Positions 6,501 through 23,264 of a stretch of 64,000 nt of DNA are shown piece by piece. The translations under genes and the position numbers were made by a program. The notes beneath the pieces are model-generated. The model was not told the origin of the DNA, searched no databases, and was given only the letters and a program-made list of their open reading frames with translations. Source of the stretch: Oxalobacteraceae bacterium UBA6018 (GTDB lineage Bacteria; Pseudomonadota; Gammaproteobacteria; Burkholderiales; Burkholderiaceae_D); assembly GCA_002428015.1 (NCBI GenBank), contig DIZW01000042.1, positions 222 through 64,221 on the forward strand, read 5' to 3'. Each line of letters starts with the position of its first letter. Positions within the stretch are counted from its first letter, which is position 1.

Positions 6501-6718
6501 CGTGATTACCTGGCAAGTGTGGAATATCTGGCAGCACGTATGTATGCCCCATGTGCCGATGCTATCCCAGAGTGGAAGCGAGGGCAAATAGTTATTTTCC
6601 TAAGGGAAACACTATCCGGGGCGGTCAGGGCTTGAGAGCGTATGACCCGGTGAGCCGGCGAACTGCGTGATGCCTTTCCGGCCGGGACCGCCGCTGACAC
6701 CAAATTCGAAGTTGGAAT

Positions 6719-7927: not shown

Positions 7928-8435
7928 CGGCCGGCGGCACTGGCAAAAGGCCGATGGGACGCGGTATTTCGACAGGAACGGGTGGGCGGATTTTGTTGAA
8001 TTGGCATACGCGCTAATTTACGGGCTTGCCGAAGGAGTGACAAGCGAAACCGTCCCCGAAGGTGAGGGCAAAAAAGCCGGCCGAACCGATGCCGACGGCC
8101 AGCCTGAACCATCTGGCCAACGGGGAGGGCGCTGGCAGCCATCGCAACGGCAGCAGCCGGAAGACTGTGCTCACGCCTGGCGCCGAGATGCGGCTCACTA
8201 TTCCACGCGACGGCCTGGGCAGCTTCGAGCTCAAGCTGGTGGCGAACCATCAACGGCGGATGGCTGGATTTTACGGCCACGCATTCGGAATGGGCGCGCG
8301 CGGCATGAATCGCCTTCCGATAGCGTGCCAGGAATTAACTCATGTTGGCATTAAGATCACTCAGCCCCTGTTTTATGTAGTGAAATTACGGAGTTCTCCA
8401 CATGAAAAAAGATTTTTGCCGTAAGATTCGGTCTT

Positions 8436-8449
8436 TGTAATCGATAACA
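8436..8449. promoter_or_regulatory. LacI-type operator (TGTAATCGATAACA) upstream of the lacI-family gene
   Basis: One mismatch to the palindrome TGTTATCGATAACA, 37 bp before ATG 8486; the motif recurs at five other intergenic sites. Confidence 0.7.
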
Positions 8450-8485
8450 TCGCTGGCGCCAAGACAGCGAAAAAGGGATCTGACG

Positions 8486-9535
8486 ATGCGTAGCGAATCT
8501 AAGCAAAACGAGCGCGGGGCGGGAGGTGCAACCGTATGGGACGTGGCGAGCAAGGCCGGGGTTTCCGCGATGACGGTGTCGCGGGTAATCAATGGCAACG
8601 CCAGTGTCAGCGAAAAAACCCGTGAAAAGGTCAACCGCGCGATCGCCGAGTTAAATTATCAAGTCAACGTGGCTGCACGCGCGGCGCGCATCGGAACCCT
8701 GCGCGTGGGCCTGCTGTACAGTAACCCGAGCGCCGCCTACCTTAGCGCATTCCTGGTCGGTGCGTTGGGTGAATGCGGGAAGACTGGCGCTCACCTTATT
8801 CTCGAAAACTGCGACAACATCCGCAGCCAGCGCAAGGCCATTGAGCGCCTGGTCGCCGACGGCGCCGACGGTATCCTGGTGCCGCCGCCGCTATGTGATT
8901 CCAAGAGCGCGATCAAGCAGTTGTCCGAGCTGGGAATTCCCACGCTCGCGGTCGCGACGGCGCGCCCATCGCCCCAGATGTCGGCGGTGCGCATCGACGA
9001 TTATGAGGGCGCAATGACGATGACCAATTATTTGTTGTCGCTCGGGCACACGGATATCGGATTCATCAAGGGAGACCCCGAGCACACGCCCGCCCAGTTG
9101 CGCTATCAGGCTTTTATTGACGGCATGCGTCAGGCTGGGCATAACGTTCCAGCCGAGCGCGTCGCACAGGGCATGTTCACCTACCGATCAGGCCTGACGG
9201 CGGCGCGGGAGCTGCTGTCGCGCCCGAATCGTCCAACCGCGATCTTTGCCAGTAACGATGATATGGCGGCCGCTGTGGTGGCGGTCGCCCATGGCATGCA
9301 TTTGCACGTGCCGGACGACGTCGCGGTCTGTGGATTTGATGACACCCCTGTCGCCACGACGGTCTGGCCCGAACTGACCACCATTCATCAGCCGATCACT
9401 GAAATGGCGCGCAGTGCGGTAGCCCAACTGATCGAGCATATTCGCGCACGCCGTTCGGGACAGTCATATATGCCCCAGCATCGGTTGATGCCGTACACGC
9501 TCGTGGTGCGCGAGTCGACCACCGGGCAAGAGTGA
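8486..9535 (+). CDS. LacI-family transcriptional regulator
   Basis: ATVWDVASKAGVSAMTVSRVIN HTH, hinge YQVNVAARA, sugar-binding domain with PTAIFASNDDMA and VAVCGFDD. Confidence 0.95.
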   Translation: MRSESKQNERGAGGATVWDVASKAGVSAMTVSRVINGNASVSEKTREKVNRAIAELNYQVNVAARAARIGTLRVGLLYSNPSAAYLSAFLVGALGECGKTGAHLILENCDNIRSQRKAIERLVADGADGILVPPPLCDSKSAIKQLSELGIPTLAVATARPSPQMSAVRIDDYEGAMTMTNYLLSLGHTDIGFIKGDPEHTPAQLRYQAFIDGMRQAGHNVPAERVAQGMFTYRSGLTAARELLSRPNRPTAIFASNDDMAAAVVAVAHGMHLHVPDDVAVCGFDDTPVATTVWPELTTIHQPITEMARSAVAQLIEHIRARRSGQSYMPQHRLMPYTLVVRESTTGQE

Positions 9536-9558
9536 GGGGCGCTGCGCCACCGTCGCGC

Positions 9559-10374
9559 TTATACCGGGAGTATGCCCTGTAGCGACGAAATGCGCTCCGG
9601 GGACGACCAGGTGCCGATCACGCGAGCGCTGGTGTCAAACTCCAGAAGTTGCTGCCCTTTGTGGCCATTGTCGGCCCCGTGTCCCTGCCAGTTCGCGACC
9701 AACAGGTGGCCGTTTGCCAGGTGCTGGAAGGTCGCGTAGAAAAACGGTGCTACGCGCGCTGACACCTGGGCCGCGGCGCCGAAGCGCCGCAGGACGTTCC
9801 CAGCCCGGTCGAACAAGACCAGGAAGGCGCCGTAACCTGCCGAAACGAGTGTCGTGCCGTCCTGGAGCCGTTCCGCCTTCCATGCGTGTTCTAGGCCGTC
9901 GACGGCGAATCGGCGAATGGCTGTCAACTCTGGCGTCGTTTCGAGGATATGGTCGTTGGTGCACAATAGGTAGCTGCCATCGGGCGTGACGCGCATGAGG
10001 CGGACGTAGTCGCCGTCACGTCGTGCCACGCCCGAAAGGCGCGCGGCGGCGTCCAAAGTCAGCACGTTGACGCCTCCCGACCCATCAAGGTTGAAGCCGG
10101 TTACCAGCGTGCTGCCATCCGCGCGGCGGTGGGCCGATGTGACTTCGGTCCAGCGGTCGCACATTGCCAGCACGCGACCCGTTTCAATCTCCAGCTCGAA
10201 GAAGCCGCGATCAAAACCGACCAGCACGCGGTGGCGGTCCAGGCGCTGCAGATCCCGGGCCAGGGGATAGTCGGACAAGTCCAGCGTCCAATGAAAAGTA
10301 TTGGTGCTCGTGTCGATCAAGGACATCTGTTGACGTCCCTCGTCGATGCCTAAAAAACGGCAAGAAATATTCAT
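9559..10374 (-). CDS. Hypothetical cytoplasmic beta-propeller-like protein
   Basis: 271 aa with repeated short beta-strand units (HAWKAERLQDGTTLVS, FQHLANGHLLVANWQGHG, QLLEFD); no signal peptide. Confidence 0.7.
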   Translation of the reverse strand: MNISCRFLGIDEGRQQMSLIDTSTNTFHWTLDLSDYPLARDLQRLDRHRVLVGFDRGFFELEIETGRVLAMCDRWTEVTSAHRRADGSTLVTGFNLDGSGGVNVLTLDAAARLSGVARRDGDYVRLMRVTPDGSYLLCTNDHILETTPELTAIRRFAVDGLEHAWKAERLQDGTTLVSAGYGAFLVLFDRAGNVLRRFGAAAQVSARVAPFFYATFQHLANGHLLVANWQGHGADNGHKGQQLLEFDTSARVIGTWSSPERISSLQGILPV

Positions 10375-10459
10375 GATTTTTATGAAGGAATGTTGGCATG
10401 GGCTAGCCGGGCACCTCGCGCCGGCAACTTATCCGAATGCTAGCACGTTTTGTGCGGCA

Positions 10460-10473
10460 AGTTATCGATATCT
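10460..10473. promoter_or_regulatory. Weaker LacI-type operator (AGTTATCGATATCT) upstream of the 10374 gene
   Basis: Core GTTATCGATA intact, three mismatches to the consensus. Confidence 0.5.
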
Positions 10474-10550
10474 CAATGGCGCTTCGAAGATCGATTTCTT
10501 GCTGAGTTGCTGCCTGGATGCGTATATTTAGCCCAAAAGAAAGGAAAGCA

Positions 10551-10585
10551 TTGACTTTGTCCAGGGATATTTGTTATCGTTAACT
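10551..10585 (+). promoter_or_regulatory. sigma70 promoter (TTGACT-N18-TATCGT, extended -10 TG) overlapped by operator TGTTATCGTTAACT (10572-10585)
   Basis: -35 at 10551-10556, TG at 10572-10573, -10 at 10575-10580; same TTGACT-N18 layout as the dgoK promoter. Confidence 0.65.
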
Positions 10586-10586
10586 T

Positions 10587-10730
10587 GTTGATGCGATGCC
10601 GGATGTACGGGCATTTCATCGGCCTTAGGATGGCAGCTCGCGCCGCAGTCCTAATGGCGTTGGTCTCTTCCGCGGGGTGGGGTCTCCTCCCGCGTTCGAC
10701 CCGCTCCCTCAGACGGGGCGGGTTTTTTTT
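10587..10730 (+). ncRNA. Candidate small regulatory RNA (~145 nt) with duplicated anti-SD seeds
   Basis: Lies between two minus-strand genes yet has a plus-strand promoter and a plus-strand terminator. Contains stem-loops (ATGCC/GGCAT, TTAGGA/TCCTAA) and the repeats GGTCTCTTCC (10662-10671) and GGTCTCCTCC (10681-10690). No RBS-led ORF is apparent. Confidence 0.6.
10699..10730 (+). terminator. Rho-independent terminator of the candidate sRNA
   Basis: Stem ACCCGCTCC (10699-10707) / GGGGCGGGT (10715-10723) running into T8 on the plus strand only. Confidence 0.8.
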
Positions 10731-10862
10731 CGCCGCTGCGGCGCGCGTCATGCTCATGAGAAGGGGCGTACCGCCGGGCCGCCGTTCTGCCGCCATTGTT
10801 CAAGCCCGTGGCCGCGCCGCAGCGCTCATCGGGGACGAGCCGGCTCCAGCGGACCGTGCTGG

Positions 10863-12512
10863 TCAGTAGGGTCCGGCGCCGGGAGCGGTCAGCCGGAACG
10901 CGAGTACGTCGAGCCAGGATCCCGCGTGCTTGCCGACGCTGAACAGGCCGACCTGGGCGCCGACCCAGGTGCCGCGCGTCACCGGGAAGGGGGCGCCAGC
11001 CGGCTTGAACGTCTTGCCATCGACGCTATACGCGAAGTTGACGAAGGCGTTTTCGTTCATATGCGCGCGCAGCGTCAGCTCCGGCGGCGCCGGCGACAGG
11101 ACCACCGTCGACTGCTCCTTGCAGCGCGCGGCGAACGGGCCACACACCGTCGCAATGAGCTCGGTCACGCCATGCGCCCGGCGCAAGCCTACCCAGGCAT
11201 ACTGCATGCCGTTGACGATCAAGCCGGCACGGTCGCCATCGGTCGCGTGTTCCAGGCGCAGCCGCGTGGTGGCGAGAAAGCGCGCCGCTGGCGCCTTCTG
11301 TGCCAGGATGGCCGGTGAGGCGCGCACGTAATCGTCGGCATCCGCGACGACCTGGGTGTACAGGCGCAAGGTTCCGGGCCGGGCGCTGAGCGAATACCAG
11401 CCCGGCTGCGGATTGCCGCTCCATTGCCACTGCAAGCCCAGATTGGCCGCACGGAAGTCGTCGCTGGTAGGCGGGGTCGCCGTGGCTTGGCCCTGTACCG
11501 GCTTTTCATAGGTAATGACGGGCTCGCCCGTGCCTGGCTTGCGGCCCGGCTGGCCGATGAGTGGCCACCCATCCTTCCATTGCATGGGCTCCAGGTGGAC
11601 CACGCGGCCATAAGGTCCTTTGTCCTGGAAGTGCAGGAACCAGTCCCGTCCGTCGGGCGCGGAGACCCAGGCGCCCTGGTGCGGCCCGTTGACCGGCGTG
11701 TCGCCCTGGTCCAGCACATCGCGCGCCTCGTAGGGGCCGGTCAGCGCGCGTGAACGGAACACGGCTTGCCAGCCCTGTTCGACGCCGCCGGCGGGCGCGA
11801 AGACGTAGTAATAGCCGTTCGCCTTGTAGATCTTCGGGCCCTCCACCGTGTGGTAGCCGGGGTAGTCCGCCCCGCGGATGATGTCCACGCCCGCGTCGTC
11901 GAGCATGCGCGTCGCGCGTGTGTCCATGCGACGCAGGGTGACCAGGTTGTTCTTGCCGGCGCGGCTGAAGGCCCAGGCGTGCACCAGATAAGCCTGGCCG
12001 TCGTCGTCCCACAGGGGGGCTGGATCGATCAGGCCGCGGCCCGCGAGCAGAAGGCGCGGTGGGCTCCACGGGCCCGCGAAATGCTCGGCCTCGACCACGT
12101 AGATACCGGCGTCGGGGTCCGGATAGAAGATGTAGAAGCGCCCGTCATGGTAGCGCAGGCAGGGTGCCCATACTCCCTTTCCGTACTGCGGCGTGGCGAA
12201 CCTTTCCTCCGGCAGTATTCTTGGCAGGGCATGGCCGACCAGCGTCCAGTTGACCAGGTCCGGGGATTCCAGCAGGGGCAGGCCAGGGACGTTGGTGAAG
12301 CTGGAGGCCGTCATGTAGAAGCGGTCGCCAACCCGGATCGCGTCCGGGTCCGAATAGTCCGCATGCAGGACGGGATTGCGGTAGCGGCCATCGCCCAGGT
12401 CGGCGACCCAGGGCGCGTCCGCCGGCGCCGGCGACTGCGCCTGCGCGACCGGGGCGACGACGGCCGACAAGGGAGCGGCCATCGCGGCCGCGAGGACGAT
12501 CCGTATGCTCAC
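10863..12512 (-). CDS. Secreted GH43 glycoside hydrolase (beta-xylosidase-like) with C-terminal beta-sandwich
   Basis: Signal peptide; YRNPVLHADYSDPD, GVWAP, LIDPAPLWDDDG, VEGPKIYK, GPHQGAWV, FHFQDKG-like motifs; GTG start overlapping the GH88 stop. Confidence 0.9.
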   Translation of the reverse strand: MSIRIVLAAAMAAPLSAVVAPVAQAQSPAPADAPWVADLGDGRYRNPVLHADYSDPDAIRVGDRFYMTASSFTNVPGLPLLESPDLVNWTLVGHALPRILPEERFATPQYGKGVWAPCLRYHDGRFYIFYPDPDAGIYVVEAEHFAGPWSPPRLLLAGRGLIDPAPLWDDDGQAYLVHAWAFSRAGKNNLVTLRRMDTRATRMLDDAGVDIIRGADYPGYHTVEGPKIYKANGYYYVFAPAGGVEQGWQAVFRSRALTGPYEARDVLDQGDTPVNGPHQGAWVSAPDGRDWFLHFQDKGPYGRVVHLEPMQWKDGWPLIGQPGRKPGTGEPVITYEKPVQGQATATPPTSDDFRAANLGLQWQWSGNPQPGWYSLSARPGTLRLYTQVVADADDYVRASPAILAQKAPAARFLATTRLRLEHATDGDRAGLIVNGMQYAWVGLRRAHGVTELIATVCGPFAARCKEQSTVVLSPAPPELTLRAHMNENAFVNFAYSVDGKTFKPAGAPFPVTRGTWVGAQVGLFSVGKHAGSWLDVLAFRLTAPGAGPY

Positions 12513-13717
12513 CAGTAGGGCTCCCAGATGCGGGTCAGGCGCGTGAGCGCTTCGAGGTAGAAGTAGTCGCCCCAGATGCAGCTTTCGTCCACGCCGATCC
12601 GGTTTGGCTTGTGGTAAACCGCGTGGCGCAACAAGCCGGTGCCAGGCGCGCCCTCATGGTTGAAATAATGTTCCGACAGGGTCATCACCATGCCGGCGGC
12701 GGCACGTTCGTAGTCGGCGCGCAGCGGATCGAGCAGGGGCAGGCTGCTTGCCAGTTGCAGCAGGCCGCAGGCGGCGATCGCGGCGGCCGAGCTGTCGCGC
12801 TCTTCCGGTCCCTCGGTGAACACCAGGTCCCAGTGGCAGATTCCGTCCGAAGGGAGCCGGTTCAGGTAGTAATTGGCCAGCACCTTCGACAATCCCAGCA
12901 GCCGCGTGTCGCCGTTGTGGCGCGCCACCAGCGGGAAGCCCGCGATGCCCCAGGCCTGCCCGCGCGCCCAGCAGGAATCGTCGGCGAAGCCCTGGTGGGT
13001 CTTGCCCTCGCGTGGCAGGCCGGTGTCGGTGTCGAAGAAGAAGGTGTGGTAAGTGGAGCCGTCGGCGCGCACGATGTGGCGCGCCGCCTGTTCGATGTGG
13101 CGGTCGGCGGCGTCTGAAAAACGCGCCTCGCCGCTGGTGGCGCCGGCCCAGTACAGCAAGGGCAGGTTCAGGTTGCAGTCGATGATCATGCGGCCGCGCT
13201 GGGCCGGTTCGTTCAGGTCGCCCCAGGCCTGGATGATGCCGGCGCCTGGATGGAAGCGTTCCATCAACAGGCCGGCGGCGCCAAGCGCGGCGTCGCGCGC
13301 CTGTTCGCTGCCCGTCAATTGGTAGCCTGCGACGCAGGACAGGCTGTACAGGAAGCCGAGGTCATGGTGGTTGGTCGCGATGCGGTCACGCTGGCGCTGG
13401 TCGAAGCTTGCCACGTGCACGTCGGCGGCACGCCGGAAGTTCGCGTCACCCGACAATTCGTAAGCCAGCCACAGCATGCCGGTCCAGAAGCCGTTGGTCC
13501 ATTCGGTGTTGTCCATGGCCGGGTAGGCGCCGCCTATGCTGGAGGGCATAGGGAAGCGCTGGCCGAAATGCGCGAGGTTGCGGGCCACGGCGGCCAGCGC
13601 TTGCCCGATGGCCCGGTCGACGGCGGCGCGTTCGGGCAGGCGCTGCCACGCGGCGGGCAGGCGTTCGGTGCGCAGCGTTTCCGGAACGGCCAGTGGTAGA
13701 GGTTCGAAGATGCTCAT
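12509..13717 (-). CDS. GH88 unsaturated glucuronyl hydrolase (cytoplasmic)
   Basis: WTNGFWTG, HHDLGFLY, MIIDCNLNL, THQG..DSCWARGQAW, DSSAAAIAACG, IWGDYFYLEAL; no signal peptide. Confidence 0.92.
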   Translation of the reverse strand: MSIFEPLPLAVPETLRTERLPAAWQRLPERAAVDRAIGQALAAVARNLAHFGQRFPMPSSIGGAYPAMDNTEWTNGFWTGMLWLAYELSGDANFRRAADVHVASFDQRQRDRIATNHHDLGFLYSLSCVAGYQLTGSEQARDAALGAAGLLMERFHPGAGIIQAWGDLNEPAQRGRMIIDCNLNLPLLYWAGATSGEARFSDAADRHIEQAARHIVRADGSTYHTFFFDTDTGLPREGKTHQGFADDSCWARGQAWGIAGFPLVARHNGDTRLLGLSKVLANYYLNRLPSDGICHWDLVFTEGPEERDSSAAAIAACGLLQLASSLPLLDPLRADYERAAAGMVMTLSEHYFNHEGAPGTGLLRHAVYHKPNRIGVDESCIWGDYFYLEALTRLTRIWEPYW

Positions 13718-13727
13718 CGGTAATGGC

Positions 13728-14993
13728 TCATTGGGTGAGGTTGGCGCCGTCGGAGGCGATCGCGCCTGCGCGGTCCCGCTTTGGCGGCGTTGGATGTTCC
13801 GGCGGGGTGGGCGCGAGCACGAAGGCCGATACGACTAGGCAGAATGCGCCGGTCAAGGCGAGCAGGAGATAGGTGCTGGGGAAGCCGATCCTGTCGTAGC
13901 CGTAACCGACCAGCGGGGACAGCAGGGACAGGCCGAGCGAGTGTCCAAAGCTGACGCCGACCATGTACACGGTCGACGTCAGGCGCTTGTCGAAGTGATA
14001 GGCGACGTAGCGGAAGATCGACACGACCAGGATCGGCAGTTCGAGCGAATGCAGCAGCTTCATCGCGGAGATCCAGATCGGCCCGCCCGGCAGGCTGGAT
14101 CCGCCGATCCTTAGCATCATGATCGTACCGGCGAGCAGCAGGCCGTTTTTAGCGCCGATGCGGCGCACCACCAAGGGCGCCACGAACAGGCCGCCAGCCT
14201 CCAGAAAAATTTGCGCCGAGCTCAAGTCGCCAAACATGACGGCCCCGGTCTCCTTGTCCGGAAACTGCGCCGCGAAATACCGCGAGAACTGCGAATCGTA
14301 GACGAGGTAGAGGTTGGTCACCGTCAGGATGAAGGCCATGAAGCGCCAGAACGTGGGACTGCGCAGCAGGAGAAGGGCGTCCGCGAGGCGGGGACCGGCC
14401 GCGCTGGCTGCCGTCGTCTCATGCGCGGGAAGGCGCCAGACGGCCAGCATGGCGACGAGCACGAGGCCCGCCCCCGAGGCCAGCATGAAGTTGATATGGG
14501 GATTCAGATTGTACAAGCGGCCCGTCATGAACGCGGCGCTCGCGAAGCCGAGCGAGCCCCACATGCGTACCCGGCTATACTCGAAACCGTAGGCGCGGCC
14601 AATGCGGTCGACGTAGGACTCGACGGCGTAGCTGCCGGCGATGAACGTAACGCCAAGAAAGGCGCCGCCCAGCAGTGCCCCCAGTACCAGATGCGATTTC
14701 AGCAGGGGCGCATAGGCGTACACCAGGAACGGTCCGGACAGCATGCACAGTCCGGCGACCGTCCACAAGACGTTCTTGCGCATCCCGACCTTGTCGGACA
14801 GGTAGCCGTACGCGGGCTGGGAGCACATCGCCGCGACAAAGTTGGTGGACAGCACGATACCGGTTTGCGCGCCCGACAGGTGCAGGTCGGACCCCAGCCA
14901 GAGCACCAGCATCGACATGGTCATGGCCTGGCCAAAGAAGTACACGTACGCGAACGTGCAGAGGAAGCGGAAATGCGATTGCCGGGAGCTCAT
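13728..14993 (-). CDS. Oligosaccharide:H+ symporter (LacY/RafB-type MFS)
   Basis: YGYLSDKVGMRKNVLW, FEYSRVRMWGSLG, KLLHSLELP motifs; start trimmed to ATG 14993. Confidence 0.9.
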   Translation of the reverse strand: MSSRQSHFRFLCTFAYVYFFGQAMTMSMLVLWLGSDLHLSGAQTGIVLSTNFVAAMCSQPAYGYLSDKVGMRKNVLWTVAGLCMLSGPFLVYAYAPLLKSHLVLGALLGGAFLGVTFIAGSYAVESYVDRIGRAYGFEYSRVRMWGSLGFASAAFMTGRLYNLNPHINFMLASGAGLVLVAMLAVWRLPAHETTAASAAGPRLADALLLLRSPTFWRFMAFILTVTNLYLVYDSQFSRYFAAQFPDKETGAVMFGDLSSAQIFLEAGGLFVAPLVVRRIGAKNGLLLAGTIMMLRIGGSSLPGGPIWISAMKLLHSLELPILVVSIFRYVAYHFDKRLTSTVYMVGVSFGHSLGLSLLSPLVGYGYDRIGFPSTYLLLALTGAFCLVVSAFVLAPTPPEHPTPPKRDRAGAIASDGANLTQ

Positions 14994-15139
14994 CGTGCGC
15001 CCCGCGGGGCGCCGCCATCGGATCGATGTGTTGCGGCCCCGCCACGCGGCGGGACCTTTGAAATAGCGAGCATGGTGTCCCCTCAAGGTGGCCGGCCGAG
15101 CCGGCGCATTGTTGTGCACGTTCCGCTCCGGAGCGTGGT

Positions 15140-15179
15140 TGTTATCGATAACCATAGCGCGCCCCCGGCGATTTGTCAA
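15140..15179 (-). promoter_or_regulatory. sigma70 promoter TTGACA-N17-TATGGT with overlapping operator TGTTATCGATAACC (15140-15153), driving permease-GH88-GH43
   Basis: Plus strand tgtcaa 15174-15179 and accata 15151-15156, 17-bp spacer; the operator covers the -10 and start region. Confidence 0.8.
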
Positions 15180-15200
15180 GCGCGTCAGGTGCGCGCTATG

Positions 15201-17090
15201 TCAAGGGGCGGGGCGCAGCCAGATCGCCTGCCCGCCGGACGCGGCCAGGTCAAGCGCCAACACCGTCGACGCATCGACGACGCGGGTGTGGATGCCAACG
15301 TGGGTGCGCGTCGGTACGCGTGCATCGTCCACGTAGAACGTCGCCTCATAGCGCCGGCCAGGCGGCAGGAAGTCGAGGCGCACCGATACATGGCGCGCGT
15401 CGTCGTTGGTGATGCTGCCGATGAACCACTGCTCGCCGCTGCGGCGCGCCACCGTCACGTCCCGGCCGGGGTAGCCATCCAGTACGCGGGTTTCGTCCCA
15501 CACCGTCGGTATCCTGTCCCAGAACGCCAGTTCCGGCTCGTCTTGCGACAATTCCGGACGGTCATACCAGTATAGCGTCTGCAGCGGACTGTAGTAAACC
15601 ACGGCCAGCGCCAGCTGATGCGCGTGCGTCGTCTTGATGCGCGGGTCGTAGTAGCAGATGGTGTAGTCGGCGGCGCCGGCGAGGTAGCGCACGAAAGGGA
15701 GGACCGTGTTGTGGGTGGCGTCGGGCATTTCCTCGTTGCCGCGGATACCTTCCGCCGTCACCAGGTTGGGCCAGGTCCGTTGTTCGCCCGTCGGACGCCA
15801 GTCGTCGTGGATATTGACCATGATGCCAGCGGCCGCGGCCTGCTCGATGGCCTTTTCGATCCACGTGGTCCAGCGTTGCGAGCCCACCTGGACAAAACCG
15901 AATTTCACCCCTTTCACGCCCCAGTCGCGGTAGGTCTGGAACAGGGTGTCCGATTGCGCCAGCAGGGCCTGCTGGTTGACGTATAGCCACACCCCGATGC
16001 CGCGCTCCTTGGCGTAGGCGATGATGGCCGGCAGATCGAAGTCGGGAATCGCCACCTTGGTCGCGTCCGAGCTGAACGAGAAGGCGGGGCCGTACCACTT
16101 CCAGTCGAACAGGACGTACTGGAGCTTGTGGCGGGCGGCGAAGTCGATGTTGGCCTTGGCCGCGGCCGTCGTCAGCGTCATGACGCGCATGATCTTGCCG
16201 GGCTTGATGAAGGACGTGTCGGCGATGCGCGCGGGGTCGTTGAGGTTCAGGATGAAGAAGTTGTTCTCCACCAGCTGGCCTGGGCGGCGCGCGATCATGA
16301 TGCCGCGCCAGGGCGTGGCGAACGGCGAGATCAAGTCGGCCGGGTCGTTCATCGCGGTGACCAGCGTGTCGGGCTTGTCGGGGCTCAGTTTGAACTTGGT
16401 GCGCGCGTAGTCGACCATGCGCGCCTCGAGCAGCGCGACATGCAGGCCGTTGGGCAGCTCCAGCGTCAGCGGACGCTCGGACTGGTCCGGCCAGTCGCGC
16501 AGCGGCAGCAGTCGGTAGGGCCCCTGGGCCCAGCCGTGGAACCAGGCGCGGGTGCCGGCCGGCAGCGCGAATTCGGTATCCTCGCCGACGATGCGGTAGT
16601 ACGACCCCTTCGCGTTCTCCGGAAACGCGAAGCGCAGGGCGACGCCCTCGTCGTAGGCCCGGACTTCGACGGACAGCTTGTAGGTCGGGTTGTCGTCCTT
16701 TTCGAGGTCGACGGTGAGCGCCTGGTAGTGATCGCGAATCCGCGCGCGCTCGCCCGTGACTGGCGTCCAGATGCTGTCGTGGCCCGAGCGGCGCACCCCG
16801 GTCACACGAAGGTTCTCGAACCAGCGGGCGTGGCGGTCGATGGGCAGCGCCATCGCGCTTTCGGACAGGTGGTTGTCCAGCCGCAGCTCCAGCAGCGATT
16901 CGCGGATCACCGGCTCGCCGTCGTAGCTGACCTTGTAGACCAGCGTGCGCCTGCCGTCCTCCGCCATTTTTTGCTGGAGGCCGAGGACGATGTGCCCGTC
17001 GGGCGAGGCCAGGCGCTCGTCCAGGCCGGGCGGCGCACCGTGGGCGCAGGCGCAGGCCACCAGAAGCAGGGTGGCGATCAGGTGGCGCAT
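15201..17090 (-). CDS. Secreted GH97 glycoside hydrolase
   Basis: Signal peptide MRHLIATLLLVACACAHG; LASPDG, FIKPGK, NIHDDWRPTG, AEGIRGNEE, DYTICYY, PTVWDET motifs; real start ATG 17090 inside the 917-aa ORF. Confidence 0.9.
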   Translation of the reverse strand: MRHLIATLLLVACACAHGAPPGLDERLASPDGHIVLGLQQKMAEDGRRTLVYKVSYDGEPVIRESLLELRLDNHLSESAMALPIDRHARWFENLRVTGVRRSGHDSIWTPVTGERARIRDHYQALTVDLEKDDNPTYKLSVEVRAYDEGVALRFAFPENAKGSYYRIVGEDTEFALPAGTRAWFHGWAQGPYRLLPLRDWPDQSERPLTLELPNGLHVALLEARMVDYARTKFKLSPDKPDTLVTAMNDPADLISPFATPWRGIMIARRPGQLVENNFFILNLNDPARIADTSFIKPGKIMRVMTLTTAAAKANIDFAARHKLQYVLFDWKWYGPAFSFSSDATKVAIPDFDLPAIIAYAKERGIGVWLYVNQQALLAQSDTLFQTYRDWGVKGVKFGFVQVGSQRWTTWIEKAIEQAAAAGIMVNIHDDWRPTGEQRTWPNLVTAEGIRGNEEMPDATHNTVLPFVRYLAGAADYTICYYDPRIKTTHAHQLALAVVYYSPLQTLYWYDRPELSQDEPELAFWDRIPTVWDETRVLDGYPGRDVTVARRSGEQWFIGSITNDDARHVSVRLDFLPPGRRYEATFYVDDARVPTRTHVGIHTRVVDASTVLALDLAASGGQAIWLRPAP

Positions 17091-18031
17091 CGTCCGGTCT
17101 TTGACATGCGGGTCGTGACGACGGTGCTCGCCAGCGCGGCGACCTGCCGGACAGTGGGCGGCGCGGCGCCGGGCCGGGTACAGGCGGCGGCCCCGGCCGC
17201 GACGGCGTAGCGCAGGTGCTCGACACCGTCGGCGTCGGGCTGTTCCATCAGACTGAACAGCAACGCCGCGATGCTGGCGTCGCCGGCGCCTACCGTGTCC
17301 GCGACCGTGATCGCGGGTGCCGAGGCACGCCATGCCCCGCCGTTGGTATGATATTCGGCCCCAGCCGCGCCGCGCGTGAACAGGATCCGGGCGTCCGGGT
17401 TGAGCGCTTGAAGGTGGGACAGGGCTGCTGCGGTCTGCGCGGTGCGGAACAGGCCGTGCAGGTCCTCGTCCGACACCTTGATGACGTCCGCCAGGCTGGC
17501 CATCGCGTGCAGCATCCGGTCGTAGCCCGCTTCCATCACGTTGCGGAAATTGGGGTCGTAGCTGATGCTCACGCCGGCGACCTTTAAGCGGACCGCAAGG
17601 TTGAGCAGGCGCGTGGCGAGTGGCTCGCGCGTCAGGCTGATCCCGCCAAAGTGGACCCACCGCGCCGCGCTTTCCCACCCAGATGGAAGCGCGTCGGGCT
17701 GGAATTGCAGGTCGGCGCTGTCGCTGCCGATAAAGAAATAGGCGGGCGGGTCGGTCTCGAAGACCGCCGCCACCAGGGGCGCTCGCGCATGTTGTTGGAC
17801 GAAGCGCGTATCGAGCCCGGCCTGCGTGGCGCTTTCCAGCAGCGTCTGTCCAAAAACGTCGGACGACACGGCGCCGGCAAAGGCGCTCGGCACGCCCAGG
17901 CTCGCCATCGCGCGCGCGACGTTCAAGCCGGCGCCGCCCGGGCGGCTCGCCCATTGGTCCGCGCCGGTCCTGATCAGGTCAGTCAAGGCTTCGCCGGCGG
18001 ACACGAATAGTGGCAGGCCGGGCGCGCTCAC
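17078..18031 (-). CDS. PfkB-family carbohydrate kinase (fructokinase-like)
   Basis: FVSAGEALTD, GGAGLNVA, SYDPNFR, IKVSDED, DTVGAGDA; GTG start coupled to the upstream TGA. Confidence 0.9.
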   Translation of the reverse strand: MSAPGLPLFVSAGEALTDLIRTGADQWASRPGGAGLNVARAMASLGVPSAFAGAVSSDVFGQTLLESATQAGLDTRFVQQHARAPLVAAVFETDPPAYFFIGSDSADLQFQPDALPSGWESAARWVHFGGISLTREPLATRLLNLAVRLKVAGVSISYDPNFRNVMEAGYDRMLHAMASLADVIKVSDEDLHGLFRTAQTAAALSHLQALNPDARILFTRGAAGAEYHTNGGAWRASAPAITVADTVGAGDASIAALLFSLMEQPDADGVEHLRYAVAAGAAACTRPGAAPPTVRQVAALASTVVTTRMSKTGRCAT

Positions 18032-19242
18032 GCTTGGCGCCCCATGGCGTTCAGGACCTCGTAGCAAGCGCCCATCGTGTGGTAGTCGGTCTTGCCCGCA
18101 GGGCTCTTCTGGTCGGACAGTTTGCGGTTGTCGGGGCCGAGGATGCGGTACCAGGCGCCATGCGCGTGATCGACCATGTGCGTCCAGCTGTACTGCCAGA
18201 TCCGGTCGTACCAGTGCCAGAATCGCGGCTCCCCCGTGCGCACGGCGAGCACCGCCGCCGCAGCGAGCGCCTCGGCCTGCACCCAGAAGTACTTGTCGGC
18301 GTCGCAGACACTGTCGTCCGGACCGATACCGTAAACGATGCCGCCGTGGGCATCGTCCCAGGCGTGGGCAAGCGCGTCGTCGAACAGGGCGACGGCACGC
18401 GGCAGCAGCCAGCCGGACGGTTGCGCCAACCGGTCGGCGTGGCGTTCCAGGTTCAGCAGCAGCTTCGCCCATTCCGCGAAATGTCCGGGCTGGTAGCCCC
18501 AGGGGCGGAAGATGTTGGTTTTGTCGTGGCGGTTATAGTCCCAGTCGACCTGCCAGTTGCGGTCGTAGTGTTCCCAGATGCGCCCGTCCGCCGCGCCGGC
18601 CTGGCGCACCGTGATGTTGTGGGCGACCGTTTCCGCACGCAGCAGGTAGCGCAGCTCGCCGGTGCACTCGTATGCCGCCAGCAGGGCTTCGCAGCTGTGC
18701 ATGTTCGCGTTCTGCCCCCGATATGGCAGCACACGCCAGTGCGCGCTGGCCTGGTCGGCGTACAGGCCGTGCTCGGGCTCCCAGAAGTGCGCCTCCATCA
18801 GTTCGTAGGTCTCGGCCACCCACTCGCGCGCTTCCTCGACACCCGCGGCCAGCGCGTGCGAATACGCCAGCAGGACAAAGGCCAGCCCGTAGCAGTGGTT
18901 ATCGGCGTCAAGCCGCGTCGCGCGCTTGTCGCGCCATGCCAGCTCCCACGCGTAGCCGCCCGTGGCCGGGTCGCGGTGGACGTCGCGCAGGAAGGCGACG
19001 CCATGGCGCACGGCCTGCAGATAGCCGTCGTCGGGAAGGTGGCGGTGCGCCATCGCATAATTGAACACGAAGCGGGTGCTGCTCACCAGGTGACGCGTCG
19101 TGCGATCGTAGACGCTGCCGTCGTCGCGAAAGAAATGGTAGAAGCCACCGCTCGGATCGATGCAGCGTGGATGGTAGAAGCGCATCGTTTGCGCTACATG
19201 CGCGGTCAGGAAATCGGGGCTGCGAAAGTTGGGCATGTTCAT
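18028..19242 (-). CDS. AGE-family epimerase/isomerase (mannose isomerase / YihS-like)
   Basis: HLVSSTRFVFNYA, HCYGLAF, YRGQNANMH, PGHFAEW, KYFWVQAE, KSPAGKTDYH. Confidence 0.9.
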   Translation of the reverse strand: MNMPNFRSPDFLTAHVAQTMRFYHPRCIDPSGGFYHFFRDDGSVYDRTTRHLVSSTRFVFNYAMAHRHLPDDGYLQAVRHGVAFLRDVHRDPATGGYAWELAWRDKRATRLDADNHCYGLAFVLLAYSHALAAGVEEAREWVAETYELMEAHFWEPEHGLYADQASAHWRVLPYRGQNANMHSCEALLAAYECTGELRYLLRAETVAHNITVRQAGAADGRIWEHYDRNWQVDWDYNRHDKTNIFRPWGYQPGHFAEWAKLLLNLERHADRLAQPSGWLLPRAVALFDDALAHAWDDAHGGIVYGIGPDDSVCDADKYFWVQAEALAAAAVLAVRTGEPRFWHWYDRIWQYSWTHMVDHAHGAWYRILGPDNRKLSDQKSPAGKTDYHTMGACYEVLNAMGRQA

Positions 19243-20309
19243 GGTCGGCGTCCGTCGGAGGTGGCAAAAATAGGAGGCTGGGCGCCGCTCCAGGCGCCGA
19301 TGCGGTAACGTGTGCGCCAGGGCCGGCCGGCCTGCAATGCGATGCCGGTCCGGTCGGCCAGTGGATGACCGAGCGGTGGCCGTGCGACCTGGCCCAGATC
19401 GAATACGCTGTTGACCGGTTCCGCGCCGAGCGCGAGATGGCGGCCGTCCCATGGGAACTCGGGGCGGCCGCGATTGCTTAGCCAGAGCATCAGGTCGGGA
19501 AACTGGCGCGTGTCCCACCACAAGCCGACGCGTGCGTCATAGTCGAGGTAGTGCAGGCTGAACGGTGCGGCGCGGTCGTTCCCCACGGCCCGCACCTGCA
19601 ACAGCTCTTCGCTGTCGGCGCCCAGTGGCAGGTGGCTCAAGTCGATGGCGCCGTTGGCGCCAGCCATTGCATCGAGGCTTTCCGAGCGCGTGTCGGGCCG
19701 CAGGTGGCTGATCGCGCCGGCACTGCGGCTCGGGTAGGTAAAAATGCCTTCGTGCGAACCCAGTTCAAGCCGCACCCGCCCGTTCGGTTGCGGCAAACGG
19801 AAGGTCGGATGTAGCCCGGCCGGCAATCGCACACTTTGCCTGGACCAGATCACGAGGTCGATGTCCAGGGCGGGCGCATCGGCTACCGCCCGCACATGGC
19901 GCTCGATACGTGCGATGGGCGAGCCTGCGGGATACTCGATCGCCAGCGACACCCGGTCGCTGCTCTGATAGTCGCACTCCCAGCGATGGTTGGAACTGTA
20001 GCCATGGGCCCAGGCGTCGTCGAGTGCCAGCGGTTCCCAGCCGGGCGGCAGGTCCGGCGGCAGGTCGATGCGGCCGAACGGCACGCACGGCCATTCGCCG
20101 CGCATGCGGCGCAGGATGCCGGGAAGGGCGAGCGAGTCGGTGGTGCCGGACCACGGGGCGACATGCATCACTTGCAGTTCGCGTTCCGCGTCGAGCCGGA
20201 AATGCAGGGGGCCCAGCATGCCGCCCAGCGCCTGGACCTCCGCGCGCCCGCAGGACCATTCAAGGCGCCAGCCCAGTGGCGCCAGCGCCGGCGACTTAGC
20301 CGCGGACAT
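19239..20309 (-). CDS. Galactose-mutarotase (aldose 1-epimerase) superfamily protein
   Basis: GEWPCVPFG, WAHG, GLHPTFRLP and LGAEPVNS motifs; ATG 20309 (20318 possible). Confidence 0.65.
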   Translation of the reverse strand: MSAAKSPALAPLGWRLEWSCGRAEVQALGGMLGPLHFRLDAERELQVMHVAPWSGTTDSLALPGILRRMRGEWPCVPFGRIDLPPDLPPGWEPLALDDAWAHGYSSNHRWECDYQSSDRVSLAIEYPAGSPIARIERHVRAVADAPALDIDLVIWSRQSVRLPAGLHPTFRLPQPNGRVRLELGSHEGIFTYPSRSAGAISHLRPDTRSESLDAMAGANGAIDLSHLPLGADSEELLQVRAVGNDRAAPFSLHYLDYDARVGLWWDTRQFPDLMLWLSNRGRPEFPWDGRHLALGAEPVNSVFDLGQVARPPLGHPLADRTGIALQAGRPWRTRYRIGAWSGAQPPIFATSDGRRP

Positions 20310-20327
20310 CGTTCTCACCTTCGGCCA

Positions 20328-21092
20328 TCATCGCGCCAACCATCCGCCGTCGACGGGAAGCACGACGCCGTGCACGTAGTCGCTGGCCCGGCTGGCGAGG
20401 AACACGGCCGCCCCGGCAAGGTCCGTCGGGCGCCCCCAGCGGCCCGCCGGTATCCGGGCCAGGATCTGCGGCGCGCGCGCCTCATCGCTGCGCAAGGCCG
20501 CCGTGTTATTGGTCTCGAAATAGCCGGGAGCGATGGCATTGACGTTGATGCCGCGTTGCGCCCATTCGTTGGCCAAGGCGTGGGTGAGCCCGGCGACGGC
20601 GCTCTTGCTGGCGGCATAGGCGGGCACCCGGATCCCGCCCTGGAACGATAGCAGGGAGGCGATGTTGATGATCTTCCCCCCCGTCGCCAGCATGTGGCGC
20701 GCAGCCGCCTGCGACAAGAAGAACAGCGACTTCAGGTTGGTGTCGAGCACCTCGTCCCAATTGGCTTCGTCGACGTCGAACGCGTCGGCGCGCCGGATGA
20801 CGCCCGCGTTGTTGACCAGGATGTCGAGGCGTCCAAGGGTGGCCACCGTCTGGTCGGCCAGGTGGGACAGCGACGAGGACTGGGACAGGTCCGCCTCCAG
20901 GGCGAGGAAACGGCGGCCGAGGGCGCGCACGGCGGCCGCGGTGTCGCCCGGGTCGCTGCGCCCGGCCACGGCGATGTCGGCCCCGGCCTCGGCCAAGGCG
21001 ATCGCGATGGCCTGGCCGAGGCCCGTGTTCGCGCCGGTCACCAGCGCGACCCGGCCGCTGAGATCGAATAGTTCGCGCATCATGTCATTCAT
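20328..21092 (-). CDS. kduD: 2-dehydro-3-deoxy-D-gluconate 5-dehydrogenase
   Basis: [44 protein letters not shown]; ATGA overlap with the kduI stop. Confidence 0.92.
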
Positions 21093-21937
21093 TTCAGTTG
21101 GCAGATGTCGACGACCTGCATGTCCGTGTAGTCGAGGTTTTCGCCTCCCATGGCCCAGATGAACGCGTAGTTGGCGGTGCCCGACCCCATGTGGATGGAC
21201 CATGGCGGCGACAGCACCGCCTGTTCGTTTTCGATCACGAGGTGGCGCGCGCCGCCTGGCTCACCCATGAAATGAAAGACGCGTTGAGACTGGTCCAAGT
21301 CGAAATAGAAATACACCTCGGAGCGGCGGGTATGCACGTGCGGCGGCATGGTGTTCCAAACGCTGCCCGGCTTCAGTTCAGTCAGCCCGAGCAGCAGCTG
21401 GGCCGATTGGCACACGCCAGGGACGACGTATTGGTAGATGGTGCGGGCGTTTGACGTCTCCAGGCTGCCGCGCTCCAGCGGTACCGCGTCGGCGTGCGTG
21501 ATCTTCTTCAATTCGAAACGTGCGTGGGCCGGGGTGGACGCGAGGTAGAACCGGGCCGGATTTGCGGCGTCGTCCGAGCTGAACTCGACCGATTGGCTCC
21601 CCATCGGCACGTACAGGCCGTCGCGCGGCGCCAGCGTCGTTGTCGTGCCGTCCACCGTCACCCGTCCCACGCCCCGTCCCACGTTGATCACGCCAAGTTC
21701 GCGGCGGGCGAGGAAGGGGAGGACGCCGTCGCCGGGCGTGGCCGCTTGCGCGGGCAGGGAGAGCGGCGTCGCGGTCGGGACCGCCCCGCCGATGACGAAG
21801 CGCTCATCGTGGCAGTAGTTCAGCGTGATCCGGTTCGGGACGATGAGCTCGTCGATCAGGTAGCGGCGGCGCAGGTCGTCGTTGCTGGCCTGGGCCATCA
21901 TGTCGGGATGGGTCGCAAAAAGGGTTTTGTCGTACAT
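21089..21937 (-). CDS. kduI: 5-dehydro-4-deoxy-D-glucuronate isomerase
   Basis: [55 protein letters not shown]. Confidence 0.95.
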
Positions 21938-21976
21938 GGCGTGTCTCCGGAGGGCGCGCCAGGCTTGGTCTGGCGC

Positions 21977-22019
21977 TGTTATCGATCACATTATAGTGGA
22001 TGTCTGCGCAGAAAGTAAA
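21977..22019 (-). promoter_or_regulatory. kduI promoter (TTTACT-N18-TATAAT) with operator TGTTATCGATCACA (21977-21990) just downstream of the -10
   Basis: Perfect TATAAT on the minus strand at 21990-21995; operator has one mismatch to the consensus. Confidence 0.75.
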
Positions 22020-22065
22020 GGCTTAGCCCTATTCCGGTCGGACCAATTTCTGTTGGAAACTGGCC

Positions 22066-22095
22066 TTGACTTTTCTGTTATCGATAACCTATCAT
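22066..22095 (+). promoter_or_regulatory. dgoK promoter (TTGACT-N18-TATCAT) with operator TGTTATCGATAACC (22076-22089) in the spacer
   Basis: -35 at 22066-22071, -10 at 22090-22095. Confidence 0.75.
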
Positions 22096-22142
22096 GCTAT
22101 GTGGTAACCACGCTCAACGACAACAATATCGGGATCCTCAAG

Positions 22143-23078
22143 ATGCAGCAGACAGCCGTGTCGTCCAATCCGTCCGCGGTCCCTGCCCGCGCGAGCTCGG
22201 TCGGCATCGACTGGGGGGCAAGCTGCCGGCGCGTGTACGTGTTCGGGACCGACGGTGCGCGTCTCGCCCTGCACGAAGATCGCGAAGGAACCCTCGCCGC
22301 CCGCGGCAGCATCGCGGTGTCGCTTGACGCGCTGGTTGGCCGGCTGGGAATCGACTGGAGAGTCCCGGTCATTGTCTCGGGTATCGCGGGCTATGGGCAC
22401 AGGGCGCAGCTGGTTCCTTGCCTCGACCTGGAAGTGCCGTTGACCTTGCTCGCTCGGCAGTTGGTGCAATTGGGAGCGCGTCGGATCGCGGTGCCCGGCT
22501 ATGTGCAGGTGACGCCGCACGCCGACGTGATGCGCGGACAGAGCACCCATCTTCTTGGACTTGTCGTCGGCGGGGGCGGAGACGGCTGGGCGGTACTGCC
22601 GGGCACCTACAGCAAGTGGGTCTACCTGCGACGAGGACGCGTGGTCCATTGGCGAACCTTCGTCACCGGTGAGCTTTTCGATTCGCAGCGTCACTTGGGC
22701 ACTGTGGCCCCGCTGCTGGAATCACAATGGTCGGATGATCCGGCAGGGTTCGATCTCGGACTGGAACTTGCCCGCAGCGGCATGTCTCTGAGCCAGGCGC
22801 TGTATTCCATGCGCGCCGCGATCGCCAATGGCGCCGTGGCGGCCGGGTTGGCGGCTCCCATGTTGAGTGGCTTGCTGATCGGCGCCGAGTTCCAGGCGAT
22901 CTGTCAGGCGGGCGTGCGCGACCGAAGCCTGCAACTGATCGCGCATGCCCCGCAGCGTGCGCTCTACGAGCGTGCCGCCGCAGCTTTTGGTTGGGAGACC
23001 GAGGCGCTTGACGCCCACGGCGTGTTCGGCGCCGCGGTGCGCCATTTGGCCCAGTCGGCCGAGGTCTGGACGAGGTAG
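22143..23078 (+). CDS. dgoK: 2-dehydro-3-deoxygalactonokinase family protein
   Basis: GIDWGASC, DVMRGQ (E/Q variant), LPGTYSKWV, TFVTGELF, LSGLLIGAE; start trimmed to ATG 22143. Confidence 0.8.
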   Translation: MQQTAVSSNPSAVPARASSVGIDWGASCRRVYVFGTDGARLALHEDREGTLAARGSIAVSLDALVGRLGIDWRVPVIVSGIAGYGHRAQLVPCLDLEVPLTLLARQLVQLGARRIAVPGYVQVTPHADVMRGQSTHLLGLVVGGGGDGWAVLPGTYSKWVYLRRGRVVHWRTFVTGELFDSQRHLGTVAPLLESQWSDDPAGFDLGLELARSGMSLSQALYSMRAAIANGAVAAGLAAPMLSGLLIGAEFQAICQAGVRDRSLQLIAHAPQRALYERAAAAFGWETEALDAHGVFGAAVRHLAQSAEVWTR

Positions 23079-23264
23079 TTGTGCCCTCGATGACACCAAA
23101 ACCAAGGAGACAAGCCGGAACGCGAACCCGCATCGCGACGACGTTGTCGACACCATGCGCCTGAAAGTCGGTGCCAGCTCGGTATACGGCTCGGAGGAAC
23201 GAACTTGCGTATGCGGGGCCGCTGAACTGGCGGCGTGATCGATCAGGCCGCGCGTGGACGGGGC

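Follow-up and report, generated by a model that had tools for sequence, protein, structure and literature searches.

The window analysed here, by which we mean the whole 64-kb stretch of DNA (66% GC), belongs to an assembly of 6 Mb in 137 contigs from a Massilia-like bacterium of the family Oxalobacteraceae (UBA6018; contig DIZW01000042.1). Between about 8 and 23 kb it holds a gene for a LacI-family regulator, which we call the 8486 protein after its first position, a gene for a 271-aa protein, an array of catabolic genes on the minus strand and a kinase gene. Six copies of a 14-bp palindrome, O1 to O6, are distributed among them (Table 1), and it is these palindromes and the regulator that probably binds them that are the subject of this report. 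The minus-strand array is split by a 207-bp gap into the kduI-GH97 operon upstream and the MFS-GH88-GH43 operon downstream. The 271-aa protein has no Pfam or NCBIfam match; in Duganella (locus L004) the GH88 operon ends with the gene for a 64%-identical orthologue, and the gene in the window is probably regulated from O2.

Table 1. Genes, predicted operators and promoter-like matches of the locus, with predicted operators on other contigs (prefixed by contig)
Feature	Position	Strand	Description
LacI-family regulator, 349 aa	8486..9535	+	HTH_LacI and periplasmic-binding-protein-like sensor domain; hinge AARAAR
271-aa protein	9559..10374	-	family not assigned by Pfam/NCBIfam; convergent to lacI
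Operon: MFS symporter (LacY-type), GH88 unsaturated glucuronyl hydrolase, GH43	10863..14993	-	Pfam; overlaps/gaps <=10 nt
Operon: KduI, KduD, 356-aa protein, AGE-family enzyme, PfkB kinase, GH97	15201..21937	-	Pfam, NCBIfam, tight packing
DGOK-family 2-keto-3-deoxy-sugar-acid kinase	22143..23078	+	PF05035; start chosen by reading; divergent from kduI; O6 promoter
O1	8436..8449		TGTAATCGATAACA, 1 mismatch to TGTTATCGATAACA; 37 nt before lacI ATG; predicted autoregulation site
O2	10460..10473		AGTTATCGATATCT, 3 mismatches, weakest copy; 86 nt before 271-aa gene
O3	10572..10585		TGTTATCGTTAACT, 2 mismatches; overlaps -10 of plus-strand promoter
O4	15140..15153		TGTTATCGATAACC, 1 mismatch; in 207-bp gap between two minus-strand operons
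O5	21977..21990		TGTTATCGATCACA, 1 mismatch; 40 nt before kduI ATG
O6	22076..22089		TGTTATCGATAACC, 1 mismatch; in spacer of plus-strand promoter
Promoter TTGACT-18-TATCGT, extended TG	10551..10585	+	O3 (10572-10585) over -10
Promoter TTGACA-17-TATGGT	15140..15179	-	O4 over -10 and start region
Promoter TTTACT-18-TATAAT	21977..22019	-	O5 abuts -10
Promoter TTGACT-18-TATCAT	22066..22095	+	O6 fills spacer
Candidate small RNA, ~145 nt	10588..10734	+	intrinsic terminator 10698-10724 and T8 run, plus strand only
Site before exported protein, 1562 aa	C109:34795		104 nt before gene; alginate-lyase-like N-domain and F5/8-type-C domains
Paired sites before TonB-dependent receptor, 983 aa	C94:67489 and C94:67635		receptor gene followed by GH28-like gene
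Site before alginate-lyase-like and LamG protein, 730 aa	C94:75066		120 nt before gene

A preliminary description of this DNA had listed six LacI-like palindromes with a central CG, all of them intergenic, one ahead of the local lacI gene and none in the 23-38 kb half. A search of the window for matches to the consensus TGTTATCGATAACA recovers all six where that description had placed them, with 1, 3, 2, 1, 1 and 1 mismatches from O1 to O6; none is an exact copy of the consensus (0/6). Matches with two mismatches or fewer number five in the window, where dinucleotide shuffles lead one to expect 0.04, and none of 100 shuffles reaches five. All six sites fall outside coding regions according to a codon-usage gene call, and all are palindromes of the LacI type. 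The position of O1 implies autoregulation. In a matrix scan, no site of at least 14 bits was found anywhere between 23 and 64 kb of the window. The six palindromes are genuine, and almost certainly serve as regulatory sites for the neighbouring LacI-type repressor.

Their placement relative to promoters was examined with a sigma70 consensus scan of positions 8000-23200. Six sigma70-like matches were found where 1.9 are expected, and four of the six coincide with O3, O4, O5 and O6, as had been claimed earlier for four of the sites. Given that operators placed in the -35/-10 spacer, on the -10 element or on the start site would be in the path of RNA polymerase, repression by occlusion is the mode of action that this arrangement points to. 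One receptor site on contig C94 lies just downstream of another promoter match, TTGCCA-16-TATAAT. Operator looping was considered and set aside, since the centre-to-centre spacings of 99, 112, 146 and 154 bp share no helical phase and the 8486 protein, unlike LacI, has by inspection no C-terminal tetramerisation helix, so that one would not expect paired sites to be looped together as by LacI. As a separate observation, the leader of the MFS operon (~150 nt) contains two GC-rich hairpins, read by eye, and at 14990-15073 on the minus strand a 27-codon upstream open reading frame with a GAGGGG ribosome-binding site, the TGA of which overlaps the MFS start codon (ATGA); this frame may provide translational coupling or encode a leader peptide.

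O3 differs in its surroundings, as the genes on either side of it are both on the minus strand and its promoter is on the plus strand. Roughly 145 nt downstream of that promoter lies a terminator with a 10-pair hairpin and a T8 tail, and the stretch between (10588-10734) folds with a z-score of -2.3. Against RF02278, the Betaproteobacteria toxic small RNA (sRNA) family, it scores 26.2 bits where the gathering score is 50, ranking ninth in the genome. An O3-gated sRNA at this position is plausible. Nearly an even bet, in our judgement, is the explanation that O3 only supplements O2 as an operator of the 271-aa gene, the plus-strand promoter and sRNA having arisen by coincidence: pairs of sites with 91-240 bp between them are frequent in the regulon, the candidate transcript is not conserved in related loci by blastn, the Rfam match is far below threshold and the fold z-score is modest. 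This explanation must, however, leave to coincidence both a promoter match with a TTGACT element, an 18-nt spacer and an extended-TG -10, and a terminator that is present on the plus strand only, where no plus-strand gene lies. The fuller proposal, that one arm of the regulon is a repressor-gated, trans-acting sRNA with C/U-rich anti-Shine-Dalgarno-like stretches and a distant kinship to the toxic sRNA family, is put forward tentatively. If it is true, the LacI protein would, on sensing its inducer, exert a post-transcriptional effect as well, such as the silencing of rival uptake systems. It should also be noted that the genome holds six RF02278 copies above the gathering score (on C89, C130, C71, C65, C87 and others) and two just below it, and that scans of the window with Rfam at gathering threshold and with ARAGORN gave no matches.

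To look beyond the window, the genome was scanned with two matrices, the first built from the six window sites and the second from related genomes only, in order to avoid circularity. The six-site matrix gives 61 genomic matches of at least 14 bits, and the best 15 of these were all called intergenic, though non-coding DNA makes up 16% of the genome; one of the 15, C96:62915, was later placed inside gspG. Intergenic sites of at least 20 bits number 12 across the genome, against 0.2 in shuffles of each intergenic region. The motif is thus well above background, a point on which the preliminary description had allowed its own reading to stand or fall. That description had also proposed a matrix scan of the genome as a check, and with the relatives-only matrix all six window sites come within the top nine of the 6-Mb genome: O6 ranks 2, O4 3, O5 4, O1 6, O2 8 and O3 9. 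Ranks 1, 5 and 7 are taken by C109:34795, C94:67489 and C94:67635, on two other contigs.

Hence the 'six-site regulon' of the preliminary description holds for the window and falls short for the genome, as at least five more sites occur on C94 and C109, ahead of the TonB receptor gene and two lyase-like genes. As predicted from the sites, the regulon comprises at least 11 of them on three loci and includes outer-membrane uptake and secreted enzymes. The two lyase-like proteins, one on C94 and one on C109, both bear signal peptides, and their N-domains are homologous (23% identity, 5e-11); a PDB sequence search with the C94 protein returned matches only to its accessory Fn3 and LamG domains. 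A weaker site lies ahead of a GH51 arabinofuranosidase gene on C104. Several other matches were rejected as operators: C96:62915 falls at the LVVIVIIG stretch of the gspG coding sequence, C73:3212 inside an open reading frame for a FAD-binding oxidoreductase and C75:54455 inside an integrase gene, while C36:51201 (DJ-1/EAL) and C123:63438, the latter with no gene within 400 nt, are not supported by the comparison with relatives. The intergenic region of C94:75066 also contains a second LacI-type palindrome, ATGTTAGCGCTAACGT (L083 11181-11198; about 75180 on C94), some 15 nt before a gene for a shikimate/gluconate-kinase-type P-loop kinase; it resembles the operator of another, GntR-like LacI paralogue.

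The genes ahead of which the sites stand give some indication of the substrate. The GH88 protein gives a 1e-112 match to unsaturated glucuronyl hydrolases of solved structure, which indicates that the uronate handled is unsaturated glucuronate. With a true GH88 unsaturated glucuronyl hydrolase in the operon, galacturonate, which had been included among the possible effectors, is unlikely to be one. Also relevant are KduI and KduD, the lyase-like proteins, and the AGE-family enzyme, which is closest to D-mannose isomerase, together with the fructokinase-like PfkB kinase; GH43, GH51, GH127, GH97, GH35 and GH2 enzymes, in this genome or in relatives, complete the set. For the 356-aa protein a PDB sequence search gave no match. 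From these gene families we would suggest, with low to moderate confidence, that the substrate is a glucuronate-containing plant gum with side chains of mannose and of arabinose/galactose, similar in type to glucuronomannan (gum ghatti) or arabinogalactan-protein. Candidate inducers are an unsaturated glucuronyl disaccharide, a keto-deoxy-uronate or keto-deoxy-gluconate (KDG), and mannose.

The preliminary description had further proposed a two-tier control, in which the LacI sites govern cytoplasmic catabolism only and an adjacent cell-surface signalling system, consisting of an extracytoplasmic-function (ECF) sigma factor, an anti-sigma factor and an STN-domain receptor, governs uptake of the same substrate. 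The LacI and ECF blocks are indeed adjacent in the window, no operator occurs in the 23-38 kb region, and both pathways end at KDG by established pectin/uronate catabolism. However, the LacI regulon includes a TonB receptor of its own and two signal-peptide-bearing, lyase-like proteins as exported depolymerases, and GH88 indicates unsaturated glucuronate whereas the GH28 genes of the ECF block indicate galacturonan. In addition, a search with the regulator yielded 80 related loci, of which 16 were annotated against the window proteins, and in none of these 16 do DUF4450, STN-receptor, FecR, ECF or window-type GH28 genes lie within about 10 kb of lacI; their adjacency in the window therefore looks incidental. 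We regard the two-tier arrangement as improbable, and the simplest reading is that of two independent polysaccharide systems, neighbours by chance in this genome.

Across the related loci, the occurrence of the palindrome tracks that of the regulator. It is present, usually in several copies, in 14 of the 15 loci with a regulator match of at least 56% identity, comprising 11 of 12 loci of Massilia, Duganella, Janthinobacterium and 'Burkholderia sp. LMU1' and all three of Caulobacter; the exception, L012, is a 3.4-kb fragment. From the 65 loci with paralogues of at most 55% identity it is essentially absent. A site stands ahead of the lacI orthologue in six loci (L001, L003, L004, L009, L013 and L016), and sites stand ahead of the orthologue of the C94 receptor in five, paired in four. 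The palindrome is also found ahead of orthologues of kduI (L001), the C109 lyase-like gene, GH97, GH43, MFS/GH88 and the isomerase-kinase pair, and in relatives the regulon gains genes for GH127, GH35, GH2, a heparinase-II/III-like protein and a second PfkB kinase. Nothing beyond the 14 bp is conserved: the flanking intergenic DNA cannot be aligned, and blastn of five operator-bearing intergenic regions against the 80 related loci and the genome gave self matches only.

The same association is visible among 81 genomes of the family, though as a pattern and not a statistic, because genomes that share ancestry cannot be counted as independent. Those four that have an orthologue of at least 57% identity carry 5, 17, 2 and 3 sites (one mismatch at most) and the other 77 carry 31 in total, with no more than two in any one genome. 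In two of the four, the distance between a site and the regulator gene is about 2 kb. One genome, G027 (660 contigs), has six paralogues of the regulator, at 57-72% identity, along with 17 operator-like sites of at most one mismatch, suggesting either an expanded family of such regulons or a mixed assembly. The three Caulobacter loci (L013, L014 and L016) show 56-58% identity to the window in the regulator, 60-62% in the MFS protein and 63-68% in GH88, with the operator shifted towards TGATATCGATATCA. Since the set of regulator, MFS, GH88 and operator is common to Caulobacter and the Oxalobacteraceae and missing from closer betaproteobacterial genomes, horizontal transfer of the regulator-operator-gene module is suggested.

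The 8486 protein itself is a LacI/GalR-family member by its domains (PF00356 at 9e-19, PF13377 at 1e-37), and PDB structures of RbsR, PurR and CcpA match it over its full length, at about 1e-47 to 1e-40. In keeping with the family, an even palindrome with a central CG occurs in the promoters of the target genes and of the regulator itself. None of its 19 matches to NCBIfam equivalogs (RbsR, PurR, CytR, GalR, GntR, CcpA etc.) reaches the cut-off, the best scoring 194.6 bits against 382 (RbsR-type). The recognition helix, MTVSRV, is common to the paralogues, whereas the hinge differs: among the 25 LacI-family genes of the genome, this is the only one with neither Leu nor Met at the hinge position that aligns with Leu54 of PurR, the other 24 having one or the other. 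Motif-carrying loci of the Oxalobacteraceae have the hinge ARAAR and those of Caulobacter ARATR or ARNTR, with Thr at the Leu position, while loci that lack the motif have a canonical S/R/N-L-A hinge (ARSLA or similar). The hinge is thus specific to the motif-carrying group, which ties this group of proteins to the motif.

In LacI and PurR, a leucine of the hinge helix (L56 and L54, respectively) inserts into the central CpG of the operator. The Leu54/Lys55 pair of PurR aligns with Ala/Arg in the 8486 protein; the loss of this leucine, otherwise a mark of the family in its recognition of the central CpG, is a variation within the family and does not exclude the protein from it. The Ala-for-Leu hinge of the group may mark a different reading of the central CpG, and the details of the hinge-CpG contact may depart from the textbook model. 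The window contains a second LacI-family gene at 56778-57713 on the plus strand, the product of which is 26% identical to the regulator and has the hinge AQELS; no TGTTATCGATAACA-like site lies near it.

It could be argued that the palindromes are bound by some other protein, either a LacI-family paralogue or a global catabolite regulator acting at sites like the catabolite-responsive element (cre), with lacI as a bystander. The genome does have about 25 LacI-family genes, that at 56778-57713 among them, with the nearest paralogue, on C84, at 50% identity; the motif fits the generic LacI-family/cre pattern TGnnAnCGnTnnCA (PMC4052901), and the sole match to the exact 14-mer in the literature searched is in a paper on Lactobacillus glycogen. 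Nevertheless, the motif tracks orthologues of the 8486 protein across genomes and not its paralogues, the orthologue is itself preceded by a site in six related loci, the hinge is peculiar to the group, and the regulon is small and functionally coherent rather than global. We consider binding by another regulator very unlikely, and assign the sites to the 8486 protein because of the comparative footprinting, the phyletic co-occurrence and the unique hinge. The notion that the palindromes are chance AT-rich words, or a small mobile or repetitive extragenic palindromic (REP)-type repeat with no regulatory role, can for practical purposes be dismissed: AT-rich words do gather between the genes when a genome has 66% GC, and several lower-ranked matches are coding or chance (those in gspG, the FAD-binding gene and the integrase gene), but shuffled intergenic DNA yields almost no such sites, positions at orthologous promoters are kept across two proteobacterial classes, and the strong copies, about 12 genome-wide, are AT-rich, show neither conserved flanks nor a hairpin-doublet structure and stand ahead of functionally linked genes, unlike REP sequences and bacterial interspersed mosaic elements, which number tens to hundreds, form GC-rich imperfect hairpins with conserved flanks or doublets and lie 3' of genes.

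Taken together, we put at about 0.85 the probability that the six palindromes are the operators of an autoregulated repressor, the 8486 LacI-family protein, which has unlinked targets on two more contigs. This assignment draws on features that can be observed directly, namely the sites, their rank in the genome, their overlap with promoters, their conservation and their co-occurrence with the regulator. From them we infer that, without a sugar ligand, a repressor dimer would bind the 14-bp palindrome T-G-T-T-A-T-C-G-A-T-A-A-C-A and block RNA polymerase. In the window, the units so repressed would be lacI, the 271-aa gene, the plus-strand unit of about 145 nt, the MFS-GH88-GH43 and kduI-GH97 operons and the keto-deoxy-acid kinase gene; elsewhere, they would be the TonB-dependent receptor gene with its GH28-like neighbour and the genes for the two secreted alginate-lyase-like proteins. 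The products would import and degrade a glucuronate-containing heteropolysaccharide resembling a plant gum, and an intermediate of the pathway would act as inducer and release the repressor.

Several observations weigh against assigning the sites to an autoregulated 8486 repressor. The consensus scan found no good promoter beside O1 or O2, and O2, with its three mismatches, is weak. The central CG is invariant in all 37 collected sites despite the Ala hinge. A few perfect palindromes occur in genomes of the family that have no orthologue (G003 and G075), and the sites in relatives were picked with a consensus derived from the window, which introduces some circularity.

The architecture matches the norms of the LacI family, and in kind this is a routine LacI-family regulon. 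It bears a likeness to the Xanthomonas loci for carbohydrate utilisation with TonB-dependent transporters (CUT loci), such as the SuxR-controlled sucrose locus, in which a LacI-family repressor controls a TonB-dependent receptor, an inner-membrane MFS transporter and glycosidases; the SuxR-type loci differ in substrate and orthologous group, and the receptor here is unlinked to the repressor gene. According to the RegPrecise survey (Ravcheev et al. 2014, PMC4052901), even palindromes with a central CG were assigned to 1173 of 1303 LacI-family factors, 72% of the factors are autoregulated and most sites lie 30-140 nt before the start codon. The present system resembles the local sugar regulons of that survey in its even central-CG palindrome, its autoregulation, its sites 30-150 nt before start codons, its local transport and catabolic genes and a motif that is kept within the orthologous group and differs between paralogues; unlike the norm there, its hinge has Ala where Leu is usual. 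Neither the orthologous group, made up of Oxalobacteraceae and some Caulobacter, nor its motif was found in the searched parts of that paper and its supplements or by full-text search. No published description of the present regulon was found in the literature searched for the motif and a named regulator.

RegR of Streptococcus pneumoniae, a LacI/GalR-family regulator of hyaluronate/glycosaminoglycan utilisation (PMC3302838), is similar in controlling genes for GH88, a transporter, a heparinase-like protein and KDG metabolism in adjacent divergent units. It differs in its Gram-positive host, its uptake by a phosphotransferase system and its animal glycosaminoglycan substrate, in contrast to the TonB receptor and MFS symporter, the plant-type side-chain glycosidases and the spread over three loci predicted here. 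With the PurR and LacI operator complexes (1PNR, 1EFA), the 8486 protein shares its domain architecture, at 1e-46 to 1e-33 to the solved chains, and a symmetric operator with a central CpG; the substitution of Leu54/Lys55 by Ala/Arg sets it apart from PurR.

Two further features lie near the regulator gene. The plus strand at 8062-8424, just upstream of the lacI promoter region, encodes part of a Mutator/IS256-family transposase (PF00872; positions 55-115 of the 379 in the profile), and this remnant may mark a rearrangement that placed lacI here. A Reg_prop/Y_Y_Y/GGDEF sensor cyclase is encoded at 3228-6587 on the minus strand, 2 kb from lacI; its paralogue (L087 603-3779, on C104) lies beside a DEAD-box helicase gene and the GH51 gene with the weak operator-like site.

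As read here, the palindromes provide a map of an uncharacterised pathway for a glucuronate-containing polysaccharide in soil and rhizosphere Oxalobacteraceae and in Caulobacter, comprising a single regulator, a single 14-bp operator and some eight transcription units, which are distributed over three loci. The shared operator locates 'missing' depolymerases and an outer-membrane receptor that would be beyond the reach of gene neighbourhood alone, and the pairing of this operator with a repressor of unusual hinge could be put to use as an inducible switch when its inducer has been identified.

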